Shown here piece after piece: positions 32,997-39,351 of a stretch of 64,000 nucleotides of DNA. The notes beneath the pieces were generated by a model that was given only the letters and a program-made list of their open reading frames with translations, searched no databases and had not been told where the DNA came from. Origin of the DNA: an uncultured Bacilli bacterium (lineage in GTDB: Bacteria > Bacillota_I > Bacilli_A > RF39 > UBA660). The DNA is taken from assembly GCA_934095845.1 (NCBI GenBank), contig CAKOKS010000004.1, positions 3,626 through 67,625 of the forward strand. The letters run 5' to 3'. Made by a program: the position numbers and the translations under genes. How positions within the stretch are numbered: position 1 is the stretch's first letter; every line of letters starts with the position of its first letter.

Positions 32997-33080
32997 TAAA
33001 CTAATTTTACATTTAAATGATTTGTAATTGTGTGTTATTAATTATTTATTGTATAATTAATTATAGAATGGTGTGTGTAT

Positions 33081-34487
33081 ATGAAAACTAAAAAAATTAT
33101 TTTTGGGATAATTATGTTTGTTTTAGGAATAACAGTTGCTTATGGAGCTGATTTAATATTAGGAGAAGAAGTTAGTTTTAATAACGGAGCAACTAATTTA
33201 AAAGCAAATAACGTACAAGATGCAATAGAAGAAATATATAATAAAACAATAGTGGATTCGTCATGTAAAAATGTAAGTGCACCTAAATTAGGGAGTGGTC
33301 TAGTTCCAGTAACAATAGAAGCCGATGGAACAGTAAAATATGCAGACACATTAAAGAGTTGGTATAACTATTGTGATAAACGTTGGGCGAATGCAGTAAT
33401 ACTTGAAGATAATGCGAGTTACAATGTTGGAGATACAATAAGTGAAACAGATATACAAAGTTACTTTGTATGGATACCAAAATATAAATACAAATTATGG
33501 AATGTAGATGTAGCAGTAGAGAATGCTCATGAAATAGAAATTGTATTTGATGAAACTGATACAACAGATGTTGAAGGTGTATCATGTAAGACTCCAATGA
33601 TAAGTGGAGAGTCTGGTAACTGTAACAATGGAGAATATATGACACATCCAGCATTTATAAGTATGAATACAAATGGATTTTGGGTAGGTAAGTATGAAAC
33701 AGGATATAAAGGAGCAACAAGTGAAGCAGCAGCTCAAGTAAATGCAAATGATATAAGTAAAGTAATAATAAAACCAAACGTATATAGTTGGAGAAATATA
33801 ACAGTTTATAACTCATTTTTAAATTCATATAACTATAAACGTAATTTAGATTCGCATATGATGAAAAATACCGAATGGGGAGCTGTTGCTTATCTATCTC
33901 ATTCTAAATATGGAAAAAATGCAGAAATAAATATAAATAATAATTCAAGTTACAAGACTGGATATTCAGCATTACCTTCAACGAATCAACAAACATATCC
34001 AGGAACAAGTGGAGATGGAGATTCATACAACTCTGTATACAATACAAATATTGGATATCTTGCAAGTACAAGTGGAAATATAAGTGGTGTTTATGATATG
34101 AGTGGTGGAGCTTGGGAATATATGGCATCTTTTGTTACTGGTAAACCTGGATCAAGTGGATTTAGTACAACAACTTTATTAAATTATGACAATAAATATT
34201 TTGATGTTTACAATGCAGCATCTACACTTACTACTTATCAATATAGAATATTAGGAGATGCAACCGAAGAGATAGGGCCTTTTAAACAATATTCAGATGG
34301 AGACAATCAGGCCAGAACTCATTCGAGCTGGTATGGTGATATGTCATATTTTTTGGACTCTACAGATGTCTGGTTTTTTAGAAGCAGTAATTATGCTAAT
34401 GGTGTGTTGTCTGGATGTTTTTCTTTTACTAAATATAACGGAGGAACTCATCCTGCTGGTGGTTATCGTATAGTATTAACTCCATAG
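33081..34487 (+). CDS. Secreted FGE-sulfatase/C-type-lectin-fold protein, paralogue 1
   Basis: Signal peptide, the VSFNNGATNLKANNVQDAIEEIY motif, then the FGE-like landmarks GFWVGKYE, NTEWGAVAYL, VYDMSGGAWEY, ..FFRSS.. and the terminal GGYRIVLTP. Confidence 0.65.
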   Translation: MKTKKIIFGIIMFVLGITVAYGADLILGEEVSFNNGATNLKANNVQDAIEEIYNKTIVDSSCKNVSAPKLGSGLVPVTIEADGTVKYADTLKSWYNYCDKRWANAVILEDNASYNVGDTISETDIQSYFVWIPKYKYKLWNVDVAVENAHEIEIVFDETDTTDVEGVSCKTPMISGESGNCNNGEYMTHPAFISMNTNGFWVGKYETGYKGATSEAAAQVNANDISKVIIKPNVYSWRNITVYNSFLNSYNYKRNLDSHMMKNTEWGAVAYLSHSKYGKNAEININNNSSYKTGYSALPSTNQQTYPGTSGDGDSYNSVYNTNIGYLASTSGNISGVYDMSGGAWEYMASFVTGKPGSSGFSTTTLLNYDNKYFDVYNAASTLTTYQYRILGDATEEIGPFKQYSDGDNQARTHSSWYGDMSYFLDSTDVWFFRSSNYANGVLSGCFSFTKYNGGTHPAGGYRIVLTP

Positions 34488-34499
34488 AAAGGAATGCTT

Positions 34500-36525: not shown

Positions 36526-37931
36526 TGACGAAGAATAAAATAATATTTATTTTAGTCGTTTTTTCTATATTTATAAGTGTTGCATATGCAGCTGAGGTGA
36601 TAAAAGCAAAAGAAATTTCTTTTAGTAATGGAATGTCTGGACTAAAAGCAAATAATGTTCAAGATGCAATAGAAGAATTGTATGACAAAACAATATCTGA
36701 CTCATCATGTAAAAATGTAAGTGCACCAAAACTAAAAGAAGGACTAATTCCAGTAACAATAGAAAATGATGGAACAGTAAAATATGAAGATACTTCTGAA
36801 AATTGGTATAACTATTGTGATAAACGTTGGGCGAATGCAGTAATACTAGAAGATGGTGCAAATTATAAAGTAGGAGATACAATAAGTGAATCTGATATTC
36901 AATCATATTTTGTATGGATACCAAAATATAAATATAAATTATGGAATACCGGAACAGCAAGTGAAGGCGTACATGAAATTGATATCATATTTGATGAAAC
37001 AGATACAGAAGATGTAGAAGGAATATCATGTAAAACTCCAATGATAAGTGGAGAGTCTGGAAATTGTAACAATGGAGAATACATGACACATCCAGCATTT
37101 ATAAGTATGAATACAAATGGATTTTGGGTAGGAAAGTATGAAACAGGATATAAAGGAGCAACAAGTGTCGCAACTGCCCAAGTTAATGGAAGTGATTCAA
37201 GTAAGATAATAGTAAAGCCAAATGTATATAGTTGGAGAAATATAACTGTGTATAATGCGTTTTTAGCATCATATAATTATGATCGTGACTTAGATTCACA
37301 TATGATGAAAAATACCGAATGGGGTGCTGTTGCATATTTATCACATTCTAGATATGGAAAAGAATATGAAATAAATATCAATAATAATTCAAGTTATAAA
37401 ACTGGGTACTCTGCACTGCCTTCGATAAGCCAACAAACGTATCCTGGAACAAGTGGAGATGGAGCAACATACAATTCAGCATACAATACAGATATTGGAT
37501 ATCTAGCAAGTACAAGTGGAAATATAAGTGGTGTTTATGATATGAGTGGTGGAGCATGGGAATACATGTCTTCATATATAACAGGAAAACCTGAATCAAG
37601 TGGATTTACGACAACAACTTTAGCAAATTATAGTAGTAAGTATTTTGATACGTATAATGCATCAACGACAGTTAGTGCTTATCAATATAGAATACTTGGA
37701 GATGCAACTGGAGAAATGGGACCATTTAAACAATATTTAGACGGAGATAATGGATCAAGATTGCATTCCAGTTGGTATGGCGACAGTTCAAGCTTTGTGG
37801 ACTCTTCTATTACTTGGCTTGTTCGAGGTGGGCATTACACTCATGGCGTGCTGTCTGGAATTTTTTCTTTCACTAGGTATACTGGAGGTACTGATACTGG
37901 CGGTGGCTTCCGAATAGTTCTAACTCCATAG
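36525..37931 (+). CDS. Secreted FGE-sulfatase/C-type-lectin-fold protein, paralogue 3
   Basis: Same architecture as paralogue 1, ending ..LVRGGHYTHGVLSG..GGGFRIVLTP. ATGA overlap with the preceding gene. Confidence 0.65.
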   Translation: MTKNKIIFILVVFSIFISVAYAAEVIKAKEISFSNGMSGLKANNVQDAIEELYDKTISDSSCKNVSAPKLKEGLIPVTIENDGTVKYEDTSENWYNYCDKRWANAVILEDGANYKVGDTISESDIQSYFVWIPKYKYKLWNTGTASEGVHEIDIIFDETDTEDVEGISCKTPMISGESGNCNNGEYMTHPAFISMNTNGFWVGKYETGYKGATSVATAQVNGSDSSKIIVKPNVYSWRNITVYNAFLASYNYDRDLDSHMMKNTEWGAVAYLSHSRYGKEYEININNNSSYKTGYSALPSISQQTYPGTSGDGATYNSAYNTDIGYLASTSGNISGVYDMSGGAWEYMSSYITGKPESSGFTTTTLANYSSKYFDTYNASTTVSAYQYRILGDATGEMGPFKQYLDGDNGSRLHSSWYGDSSSFVDSSITWLVRGGHYTHGVLSGIFSFTRYTGGTDTGGGFRIVLTP

Positions 37932-37944
37932 AAAGGATAAACTT

Positions 37945-39351
37945 ATGAAAAATAAATTGTTAATTACGAGTTTAGTTATAAGTACATTATTTTTTGCAGT
38001 TGCCTATGCAGCAGAACTTATAAATGGTAAAGACGTTAGTTTCAGTAATGGTACTTCTGGATTAAAAGCAAATAACGTACAAGATGCAATAACAGAACTT
38101 TATAATAAAAACATAAGTGAAACATCATGCAAAAATGTAAGTGCACCAAAATTAGGGAGTGGGCTTGTTCCAGTAACAATAGAAAATGATGGAACAGTAA
38201 AATATGCAGATACATCAAAGAGTTGGTATAACTATTGTGATAAAATATGGGCGAATGCAGTTATTCTTGAAGATAATACAAGTTATAAAGTAGGAGATAC
38301 GATACAAGAAAGTGACATTCAAAGTTACTTTGTATGGATTCCAAAATATAAATATAAATTGTGGAATGTAGATACACCAAGTAAAGGAATACATGAAATA
38401 GAAATTGTATTTGATGAAAATGATACAAATGATATAGAAGGAGTTTCTTGTAAGACACCAATGGTAAGTGGAGAAAGTGGAAACTGTAATAATGGCGAAT
38501 ATATGACACATCCAGCATTTATAAGTATGAATACAAATGGATTTTGGGTAGGTAAGTATGAAACAGGATATAAAGGAGCAACTAGCACTACAGCAGCTCA
38601 AGTAAATGCAAATGATACTAATAAAATAATAATAAAACCGAATGTATATAGTTGGAGAAATATAACTGTGTATAATGCATTTTTAAATTCATATAACTAT
38701 AAACGTAATTTAGATTCACACATGATGAAAAGTACTGAATGGGGAGCGGCTGTATACTTATCTCATTCTAAGTATGGAAAAGACTATGAATTGAGTAAAA
38801 ATAATAACTCGGCTAGTATTACAGGATATTCAGCATTACCATCAACAAACCAACAAACATATCCAGCTACTTCAGGTAATGGAGATACTTATAATAAACC
38901 ATATAATACAGAAACAGGGTATTTAGCAAGCACGACAGGAAATATAAATGGGATATATGATATGTCAGGTGGTGCATGGGAGTATGTTGCCTCATATATG
39001 AGTGGCAAATTAGGATCAAGTGGGTTTACAACAACGACTATTGCAGATTATGATAGTAAATATTTTGATACATATAATGCATCATCAACTCAAACTACTT
39101 ACCAATATAGAATACTTGGAGATGCAACCGGAGAAATAGGACCATTCAAAAGTTATTTGGATGGAGATAATCAAGCTAGATATCATACAAGTTGGTATGG
39201 TGGACTTTCAATTTTTATTGATTCTTCATGGTCTTGGTTTAGACGAGGTGGAAATAATGGTGATGGAGTTCTTGCAAGTTCATTCTATTTTTGTGGAAAT
39301 TATGGAAGTGCAAGCAATTCAGGTGGTTTCCGTATAGTATTAGCTCCTTAA
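37945..39351 (+). CDS. Secreted FGE-sulfatase/C-type-lectin-fold protein, paralogue 4
   Basis: Same architecture as paralogue 1, ending ..FRRGGNNGDGVLAS..SGGFRIVLAP. Confidence 0.65.
   Translation: MKNKLLITSLVISTLFFAVAYAAELINGKDVSFSNGTSGLKANNVQDAITELYNKNISETSCKNVSAPKLGSGLVPVTIENDGTVKYADTSKSWYNYCDKIWANAVILEDNTSYKVGDTIQESDIQSYFVWIPKYKYKLWNVDTPSKGIHEIEIVFDENDTNDIEGVSCKTPMVSGESGNCNNGEYMTHPAFISMNTNGFWVGKYETGYKGATSTTAAQVNANDTNKIIIKPNVYSWRNITVYNAFLNSYNYKRNLDSHMMKSTEWGAAVYLSHSKYGKDYELSKNNNSASITGYSALPSTNQQTYPATSGNGDTYNKPYNTETGYLASTTGNINGIYDMSGGAWEYVASYMSGKLGSSGFTTTTIADYDSKYFDTYNASSTQTTYQYRILGDATGEIGPFKSYLDGDNQARYHTSWYGGLSIFIDSSWSWFRRGGNNGDGVLASSFYFCGNYGSASNSGGFRIVLAP

Follow-up and report, generated by a model that had tools for sequence, protein, structure and literature searches.

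A fixed tandem array of C-type-lectin binding heads, related to targets of diversity-generating retroelements, probably serves as a binding repertoire in an uncultured gut Bacilli bacterium

Proteins with a C-type-lectin (CLec) fold of the formylglycine-generating-enzyme (FGE) type are the largest target class of diversity-generating retroelements (DGRs), and are considered binders rather than enzymes (Wu et al., PMC5758913). Several paralogous DGR targets are known in Treponema (PMC5758913), the tips of Bacteroides Type V pili carry CLec heads that are either DGR-diversified or static (bioRxiv 10.1101/2024.11.15.621889), and DUF6273, a C-lec domain, is a DGR target in the 'tentaclins' of gut phages (PMC10743442). 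Here we analyze four tandem genes for FGE-type CLec heads, with a gene for a 200-amino-acid (aa) 'module' protein among them, in a 64,000-nt stretch of an uncultured Bacilli bacterium of the RF39 lineage (GenBank assembly GCA_934095845.1, contig CAKOKS010000004.1, positions 3,626 to 67,625; hereafter the window). These genes are DGR-less additions to the known CLec class. An earlier note, written from the sequence alone, had described them as a repertoire of binding heads belonging to a Tad-like pilus system and as not previously described. The idea of a repertoire is supported and can now be anchored in DGR biology, since the heads belong to a DGR variable-protein family, a membership the note had missed; the claim of novelty was too strong, given the studies of the FGE-type class and of the Bacteroides tips.

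The four paralogues are 71-77% identical in pairwise comparisons and share all the elements that the earlier note had listed. Their N-termini are K-rich and hydrophobic and end in (V/I)AY(A/G)|A, which reads as a Sec-like signal. The motif (V/I)SF(S/N)NG..(S/T/N)LKANNVQDAI.E(L/I)Y, with 16 invariant positions in the four-copy alignment, lies in the N-terminal part, and the heads contain the landmarks GFWVGK(Y/F)E, NTEWGA, YDMSGGAWEY and G(Y/F)RIVL. The gene for the 200-aa protein sits between copies 2 and 3, as the note had it, and overlaps the start of copy 3 by one base at 36525. The open reading frame (ORF) of paralogue 1 is listed from a GTG at 33075 (33075-34487, 470 aa), with the ATG at 33081 as the likely true start. 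Divergence is concentrated where the note had placed it, in the last ~70 aa: mean pairwise identity is 0.80 over alignment columns 27-400 and 0.47 over columns 401-471, dN/dS is 0.21 and 0.39, respectively, and dS is 1.17-1.34 in the C-terminal region compared with 0.67 in the rest. A dN/dS of 0.39 indicates that the C-terminus is relaxed, not that the ratio exceeds 1. The exact array was found on 53-72 kb contigs from independent gut metagenomes. The nearest reference genomes are metagenome-assembled genomes (MAGs) of uncultured 'Bacilli bacterium' from human (Hadza), mouse and rabbit guts, and a closed 1.31-Mb chromosome is known for one relative.

Pfam alone was inconclusive about the fold, since the four copies fall below the gathering cut-off of 23.3 bits for PF03781 (FGE-sulfatase), with 15.4 bits, no match, 16.4 and 18.9 bits for copies 1-4. 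One relative, P0173, scores 25.4 bits, and PF03781 matches 18 of 83 diverse relatives at E<=0.01 (best 3.7e-5), a number reached otherwise only by N_methyl, the N-terminal pilin motif. An AlphaFold2 model of mature paralogue 4, which needed distant pilin-fused homologues in its alignment, reached a pLDDT of 90.7 and a pTM of 0.91; a model from a shallow alignment (62 sequences, mostly >65% identical) had a pLDDT of 44.8 and was discarded. When the model was compared with the PDB by Foldseek, the top 11 matches were all FGE-type CLec folds. The best was the DGR variable protein TaqVP (5vf4; E 1.6e-7, prob 1.0), and others were FGE of S. coelicolor (2q17), Mtd (1yu0), EgtB, PvdO, TvpA (2y3c), OvoA and CarF. 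BFVD gave 22 matches at E<1e-3; most were tail-fibre or tail-collar-fibre proteins of phages, and the highest-ranking one bears a SUMF1-like annotation. By sequence, a four-sequence profile gave no match in the PDB and an 83-sequence profile gave weak ones (5vf4, E 0.045), and the family profile aligns with 5vf4 and PvdO at the G.YDM.G..WE motif. The FGE/SUMF1-type CLec fold that had been read from the landmarks is thus borne out by the model. No invariant or near-invariant Cys was found in alignments of 83 or 137 family sequences, so the FGE catalytic Cys pair, whose possible absence the earlier note had raised, is indeed missing, which argues that the proteins are binders and not formylglycine-generating enzymes.

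An exhaustive search gave 4,113 representative clusters (50% identity) at E<=1e-3. The ~405-aa head domain (residues ~64-470), which includes an extra subdomain at residues ~64-114 plus insertions, is the C-terminal unit of proteins of 400-4,500 aa, and is sometimes present in tandem. The family has no Pfam model of its own, often occupies many loci per genome in the sampled MAGs, and is restricted to uncultured Bacilli with reduced genomes that live in the guts of humans, mice and rabbits. NCBIfam gave no meaningful match for the paralogues or the 200-aa ORF, and we found no description of this CLec family in the literature on FGE-sulfatase/pilin proteins or on RF39 adhesins and pili. Tandem arrays recur among the relatives, with five copies in locus L011 (349-7268), three to four in L004 (10199-14254) and 2-4 in L009, L052 and L056. 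Given that the arrays of L011 and L004 have no nearby Tad genes, tandem amplification is a general habit of the family.

That relatives of the window heads are diversified by DGRs was found by searching 79 related genome loci for copies of CLec 3´ ends outside CLec genes. Five loci (L010, L013, L031, L065 and L079) carry a 142-158-nt repeat located 150-200 nt downstream of the CLec stop codon, and the substitutions fall on adenines of this template repeat (TR) at 15/17, 7/7, 9/9, 15/15 and 16/16 positions, respectively (62/64 in total). MutS_I-like, bAvd and RVT_1 genes follow the repeat in L010, L031, L065 and L079, while the L013 contig stops at the repeat. These cassettes, with their MutS_I-like, bAvd and reverse transcriptase (RT) genes, match the MSL + Avd class described by Wu et al. 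(PMC5758913). The GC content from the variable repeat (VR) to the TR is 0.40-0.51, compared with 0.26-0.33 for the whole loci. The targets in L010 and L013 are 69-70% identical to paralogue 4, and the L010 target has the same architecture of Sec signal plus motif as the window heads. L013 and L012 come from the same MAG, and the Tad operon of L012 is 84-97% identical to that of the window. The L065 target is a type IV pilin leader fused to a CLec head, in a monoderm. The window heads are therefore part of a DGR variable-protein family whose members in sister genomes are bona fide DGR targets.

A DGR is neither present in the window nor acting on the four copies. No template repeat was detected in the window, where the four 3´ ends match only one another, and tblastn with the L010 and L079 proteins found no RT, Avd or MSL gene in the 64 kb (nothing better than E=1.8); the idea of a DGR acting inside the window was accordingly rejected. 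The last 50 aa of the four copies nevertheless align without gaps with the translated template repeats of L010, L031, L065 and L079. At DGR-mutable codon positions there are 3.0 distinct residues among the four copies, versus 1.9 elsewhere (Mann-Whitney U test, p about 1e-4; Fisher test, p 0.005-0.01). The divergent C-terminus, which the earlier note had taken for the variation-tolerant, ligand-binding face of the fold, thus aligns with the VRs of DGR targets and differs most at the mutable positions. Compared with three independent assemblies, the 13-kb region has 0, 1 and 9 mismatches, none of them inside the VR-equivalent patch. Two orthologues of paralogue 4, P0001 (92% identical) and P0002 (89%), differ from it at 36 and 53 positions overall, mostly in the N-terminal half, and at 0 and 4 positions among the last 50 aa. 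The four copies differ from each other also at synonymous and non-adenine positions. Together, the lack of a TR or RT in the window, the identical assemblies and the conserved orthologue patches point to a fixed repertoire, and the data fit long-standing, selected variants of the binding patch on a scaffold that gene conversion has kept homogeneous. In the assembly with nine mismatches (L003), eight cluster in paralogue 3 at 37000-37500, likely a gene-conversion tract from another copy.

How the heads might be displayed is suggested by the N-termini of the family. Type IV pilin leaders (PF07963) are found in 20 of 83 diverse relatives and in most matches among distant homologues, and the source databases name such pilin-fused relatives 'prepilin-type N-terminal cleavage/methylation domain-containing protein'. 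Other relatives have a KGFAISG variant leader, a GFAA.STTL 'module' or SipW/TasA-like (S/T)(Y/F)A.(F/Y/W) N-termini, some of the last with PF12389. A possible homology of the GFAA.STTL module with SipW/TasA-like N-terminal domains reached no more than 66% HHalign probability over 32 columns. The head also occurs with Flg_new, Ig-like, Laminin_G and ALK_LTK_GRD domains. The arrangement seen in the window, a Sec signal followed by NVQDAI.EL, is present in 11 of 150 representatives, and the G|F(T/S)L(I/V)E type IV pilin leader is absent from the four window copies.

The 200-aa protein consists of an N-terminal signal or transmembrane segment ending GFAAISTTL, an Ig-like middle and, at the extreme C-terminus, the motif IAYDDSNTNIGCSNVQDCLDKL; this C-terminal IAYDD..NIGCSNVQDCLDKL motif resembles the N-terminal motif of the heads. 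By a module hidden Markov model, the module is fused directly to a CLec head in 27 of the 112 CLec ORFs of related loci, and the docking-type motif is absent from the fusions examined (12 regex-classed module ORFs and the fused representatives). The motif is N-terminal in 28/112 CLec ORFs and in two GRD-head proteins (L031), and module proteins carry it at their extreme C-terminus in three independent loci: the window, L008 and L035 (a 686-aa protein). Motif-type heads are enriched beside free module genes (7/24 versus 3/57, p=0.006). This Rosetta-stone pattern, with fusions on one side and motif-bearing free parts on the other, points to the 200-aa protein as a possible stalk or adaptor of the heads, and makes the earlier description of its gene as adaptor-like plausible. 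The occurrence of an NVQ.A(I/L)DEL-like motif in phage fibres was not supported: in tblastn, the N-terminal 89 aa had only a spurious match among 50,697 phage records, and there was no PHROG match. Elsewhere in the window (41732-44500), a 144-aa ORF with a module-like N-terminus precedes a 749-aa protein with two ALK_LTK_GRD domains and strong matches to PHROG families of unknown function. The GRD-type heads of L031 have an N-terminal NVQ/TVEDAL motif like that of the CLec heads.

We think it probable that the array encodes four Sec-exported, extracellular CLec binders that form a small repertoire of fixed specificities, on which no DGR acts and which are displayed via module proteins. In this model, each protein would present a ~400-aa FGE-type CLec head with its binding surface in the last ~50 residues. 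Diversity would be hard-wired as four tandem copies instead of being generated by DGR hypermutation, with the 5´ parts kept alike, probably by gene conversion, and the C-terminal patches differing at DGR-mutable positions while each is conserved between strains. Most likely, the heads would act as adhesins or lectins, with ligands on host, dietary or microbial surfaces. Their display probably relies on module proteins with which they associate, the co-transcribed 200-aa protein among them, and docking could occur through the shared NVQD(A/C)(I/L).(E/K)L motif, which the heads carry N-terminally and the module protein C-terminally.

Several observations weigh against this interpretation. The three matching assemblies may come from related samples, and a DGR may lie elsewhere in the genome, beyond the 64-kb window that was searched. 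Large insertions and an extra N-terminal subdomain keep the TM-scores to solved structures low (0.27-0.43), and the N-terminal motif region is modelled at moderate confidence (pLDDT 50-71). The enrichment of motif-type heads beside module genes rests on four independent loci, four of the seven cases being the window's own genes, and the module genes beside motif-type heads in L010 and L012 have no C-terminal motif. The adhesin role is proposed by analogy with TvpA, Mtd, TaqVP and the Bacteroides tip adhesins.

A more general scheme, which we put forward tentatively and regard as unlikely in its entirety, is a 'plug-and-play' display system of uncultured small-genome gut Bacilli, built around one CLec head. 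The head could be mounted covalently, as a fusion with a type IV pilin leader, a SipW/TasA-like domain or the GFAA.STTL module, or non-covalently, with the NVQD(A/C)(I/L).(E/K)L motif joining the N-terminal end of a free head to the C-terminal end of a stalk protein of the module type, such as the 200-aa protein. Diversity would come from DGR hypermutation in some lineages and from fixed tandem, 'frozen' VR variants in others. On this view, a lost DGR would have been replaced by a germline-encoded array, in which selection keeps four specificities and gene conversion homogenises the scaffold.

The coordinates of the array, its control region, the Tad-like genes and the DGR cassettes of related loci are collected in Table 1.

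Table 1. Features of the array, its surroundings in the window, and DGR cassettes in related loci. Coordinates are those of the window unless a locus is named.
Feature	Coordinates	Strand	Remarks
Paralogue 1	33081..34487	+	468 aa from ATG; Sec-type signal, NVQDAIEEI motif, FGE-type CLec head
Paralogue 2	34494..35903	+	469 aa; C-terminal patch most divergent of the four
200-aa 'module' protein	35923..36525	+	one-base overlap with start of paralogue 3
Paralogue 3	36525..37931	+	468 aa
Paralogue 4	37945..39351	+	468 aa; copy modelled, mature part 38020-39348
VR-equivalent patch, paralogue 1	34335..34484	+	last 50 codons; gapless alignment with translated DGR template repeats of L010, L031, L065, L079
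VR-equivalent patch, paralogue 2	35751..35900	+	same template-repeat alignment (L010, L031, L065, L079)
VR-equivalent patch, paralogue 3	37779..37928	+	same template-repeat alignment (L010, L031, L065, L079)
VR-equivalent patch, paralogue 4	39199..39348	+	same alignment; identical in the 92%-identical orthologue P0001
Terminator-like hairpin and T-run	32973..32990	+	consensus scan; ends upstream Tad-like operon, after membrane-protein gene
Array promoter and leader region	32995..33079	+	putative promoter/operator
Inverted repeat TGTAAA-N5-TTTACA	32995-33011	+	part of array promoter region
Extended -10 TGTATAAT	33050-33057	+	part of array promoter region
16-mer leader TAGAATGGTGTGTGTA	33064-33079	+	contains Shine-Dalgarno-like GGTG
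Upstream Tad-like operon	28313..32974	+	genomic context of the array
CpaB/RcpC-like genes	28313-29125, 29137-29952	+	operon genes 1-2
T2SSE/TadA-like ATPase	29989-31278	+	operon gene 3
Two polytopic membrane proteins (called tadB/tadC)	31293-32186, 32189-32974	+	position and membrane topology only
TadE-like pseudopilin candidates	4922-5404, 5814-6311		second Tad-like cluster
Flp-like prepilin, 95 aa, MKDATG|ELSMTAVAVVAIAAI	5491-5778		second Tad-like cluster
TadZ/CpaE-like ORF	6295-7302		second Tad-like cluster
114-aa membrane protein, weak T4SS_pilin match	7367-7711		second Tad-like cluster
DGR cassette, L010	11258-13730		VR, TR, MutS_I-like, bAvd, RT
DGR cassette, L031	11102-13570		VR, TR, MutS_I-like, bAvd, RT
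DGR cassette, L065	11254-13694		VR, TR, MutS_I-like, bAvd, RT
DGR cassette, L079	1795-4358		VR, TR, MutS_I-like, bAvd, RT
VR/TR, L013	11252-11733		

The array appears to have a promoter of its own, as the earlier note had held, and both marks that the note named, a palindrome and a leader, were found. The leader TAGAATGGTGTGTGTA occurs in exactly three copies in the window (22343, 33064 and 57805), each immediately upstream of a start codon and each preceded by an inverted repeat, TGTAAA-N(2-5)-TTTACA, and by an extended -10, TGTATAAT. The search tolerated <=3 mismatches, for which the chance expectation was 0.78 and a count of three was attained in 3 of 100 shuffles; the three matches in the window have no mismatch. 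Outside the window, exact copies were found only in the same lineage (L001 and L004), always before a module or CLec gene. The two other genes with the array's promoter and leader (22352-23545 and 57814-59031) are paralogous, with ~150-nt upstream regions nearly identical to each other. In their products, a GFAA.STTL module is followed by an Ig-like region and, at the C-terminus, a DUF6273 (C-lec) head that ends in PAFRIA.

In our judgement, a role as dedicated cargo or tip adhesins of the neighbouring Tad-like pilus, with the four heads and the 200-aa protein built onto the pilus or exported through its machinery, is improbable. This explanation draws on the start of the array ~90 nt past the terminator of a cpaB-cpaB-tadA-tadB-tadC-like operon on the same strand, on a second Tad-like cluster at 4.9-7.3 kb with Flp-like, TadE-like and TadZ-like genes, and on the sister species represented by L012, where the slot after tadC also carries a CLec-type surface gene, in that case for a module + DUF6273 protein. 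In addition, about a quarter of the family is fused to type IV pilin leaders, which places the head on type IV filaments in some relatives. However, these fusions carry GFTLIE-type leaders, which are typical of Com, type IVa pilus and type II secretion pilins and not of Tad pilins, while the window heads, as far as can be read from their sequences, carry Sec-type signals, with no prepilin signal of the Flp (G/XXXXEY) or TadE-like kind. Of the 37 related loci of at least 15 kb, just 2 have a tadA-like gene within 10 kb. Arrays (L011, L004, L009, L052 and L056) occur without Tad genes, as does a head + 200-aa pair (L008, beside mraZ, rsmH, ftsL and a penicillin-binding protein gene), and the promoter and leader are the array's own, common to two unlinked genes. 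Given the Sec signals, the 2/37 loci, the arrays in unrelated contexts and the different occupant of the L012 slot, Tad adjacency is not a property of the family, and the region downstream of tadC is at most a landing site for surface-head genes in the genus. The adjacency that the earlier note described is real, with the identity of tadC resting on position and topology, as the genes called tadB and tadC have no Pfam or NCBIfam match; its assignment of the array to the Tad-like system is not supported, arrays being found, at the level of loci, mainly where there are no Tad genes, an outcome that the note itself had named as a refutation.

The second Tad-like cluster (4922-7711) was assigned by inspection, and a prepilin peptidase was not found in the window. 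Just upstream of the TadE/Flp-like genes, a 403-aa protein (3644-4855) is another surface protein, with a signal peptide, a Cys-rich N-terminus, a Thr/Pro-rich linker, Cadherin-like beta-sandwich repeats and a C-terminal transmembrane anchor. An Rce1-like CPBP intramembrane protease (27603-28211, minus strand) is divergent from the Tad-like operon, an arrangement kept in L012 (15459-16061); it is conceivable that this protease acts in surface-protein or pilin processing.

Far less probable than Tad cargo is active DGR targeting of the four copies, with a cassette elsewhere in the genome diversifying them in trans. Their close relatives are DGR targets, their variable positions coincide with mutable positions, and remote and multiple targets, known for Treponema and other DGRs, provide a precedent (PMC5758913). 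Nonetheless, the 3´ ends differ at synonymous and non-adenine positions, with the high regional dS of 1.17-1.34, which indicates that the four ends do not derive from one TR. The patches are the same in three assemblies and conserved in the 89-92% identical orthologues, the window 3´ ends have a low GC content like that of the host rather than the 0.40-0.51 of VR and TR in active cassettes, and the 64 kb hold no cassette gene. Diversification in trans is thus already largely refuted.

We give even less credence to the proposal that the proteins are secreted enzymes of the FGE/SUMF1 superfamily, whether formylglycine-generating, sulfoxide-synthase-like or other oxidases. The weak PF03781 matches and the fold matches to FGE, EgtB, OvoA, PvdO and CarF would be in keeping with an enzyme. 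Yet no Cys is conserved anywhere in the family. The FGE catalytic Cys pair sits immediately after the RGGS motif, and in the window family the stretch after this motif is the hypervariable patch, whose hypermutation in relatives is incompatible with a fixed active site. Moreover, the heads have no DinB-type iron domain, unlike EgtB and OvoA, and in structure as in sequence they match non-catalytic DGR binders and phage fibres best. That the array is a prophage or phage-derived remnant carrying tail-fibre genes is just as hard to credit, for all the structural likeness to tail-fibre and tail-collar-fibre proteins and the PHROG matches of the neighbouring ALK_LTK_GRD and DUF6273 proteins, since the flanking genes are housekeeping genes (fmt, nusA, infB, tyrS), no phage structural or integrase genes are present, 2.9 million viral contigs (IMG/VR) yielded two weak relatives (31% identity) compared with >586 genome stretches, and the paralogues have no PHROG match and carry Sec signals.

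The window has a GC content of ~25%, and the housekeeping genes tyrS, fmt, nusA, infB and truB that flank the region mark it as chromosomal DNA. A CotZ-like spore-coat gene is present at 53854-54315, and the related contig L005 encodes Spo0A, which hints that sporulation is retained in Bacilli of this reduced-genome type.

A fixed repertoire of Sec-exported heads thus remains our preferred reading, and with it the genes would be best annotated as homologues of DGR-type CLec variable proteins, not as 'sulfatase-modifying enzymes' or Tad components. In the literature examined, we did not find descriptions of the size and lineage restriction of the family, of the fusions to type IV pilin leaders or modules in monoderm Bacilli, of the candidate docking motif, or of a fixed four-copy array standing in for a DGR. 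That so much is devoted to surface binders suggests a central place in the lifestyle of these bacteria for attachment, whether to host mucus, to particles of the diet or to other microbes.

Among described systems, monoderm Tad/Flp pili, such as the Tad pili of Bifidobacterium breve, share with the window the CpaB-like, TadA-like and TadB/C-like genes just upstream of the array, and the Flp-like and TadE-like genes elsewhere. The window heads differ in having no prepilin signals, and Tad linkage is not conserved in their family; we know of no Tad system with CLec-head cargo and found none in the literature examined. Phage receptor-binding proteins (Mtd of the Bordetella phage, the DUF6273 'tentaclins' and SUMF1-like tail-collar fibres) have the same head fold, and DUF6273 heads with the array's leader and an N-terminal module are also encoded in the window, at 22352 and 57814. 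The window genes, in contrast, are chromosomal and cellular, with signal peptides and no virion context, and their family is almost absent from viral contigs.

The DGR variable proteins TvpA of Treponema denticola and TaqVP of Thermus aquaticus resemble the window heads more closely: like them, they have no catalytic Cys pair, and TvpA is present in several paralogous copies per genome, as in the window. Here, however, there is no TR or RT in 64 kb, the copies are static between strains, and diversity resides in four tandem genes, not in hypermutation. The window domain is also larger (~400 aa, with the extra subdomain at ~64-114 and insertions), falls below the PF03781 threshold and is preceded by the distinctive N-terminal NVQDAI.EL motif.

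The Bacteroides Type V tip adhesins offer another parallel. They too are found in gut bacteria, with a globular CLec head as the distal binding unit of a modular surface structure, and with head genes at the ends of operons that also contain stalk or anchor genes. Diversified and static versions coexist in both groups; in Bacteroides, BfrT, BthT and BunT are diversified and BovFim1C is static (bioRxiv 10.1101/2024.11.15.621889). Type V pili are built from lipoprotein-type pilins by strand exchange in diderm Bacteroidota, whereas the window family has Sec-type, type IV pilin-type, SipW-like or module N-termini in monoderm Bacilli. The type IV pilin-leader fusions, among them the active DGR target of L065, would be a monoderm counterpart of the DGR-diversified Type V tips. 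The same CLec head, hypermutated by DGRs in sister genomes and apparently frozen as four specificities here, provides a natural comparison, in which one can ask which ligands a gut symbiont hard-wires and which it diversifies.

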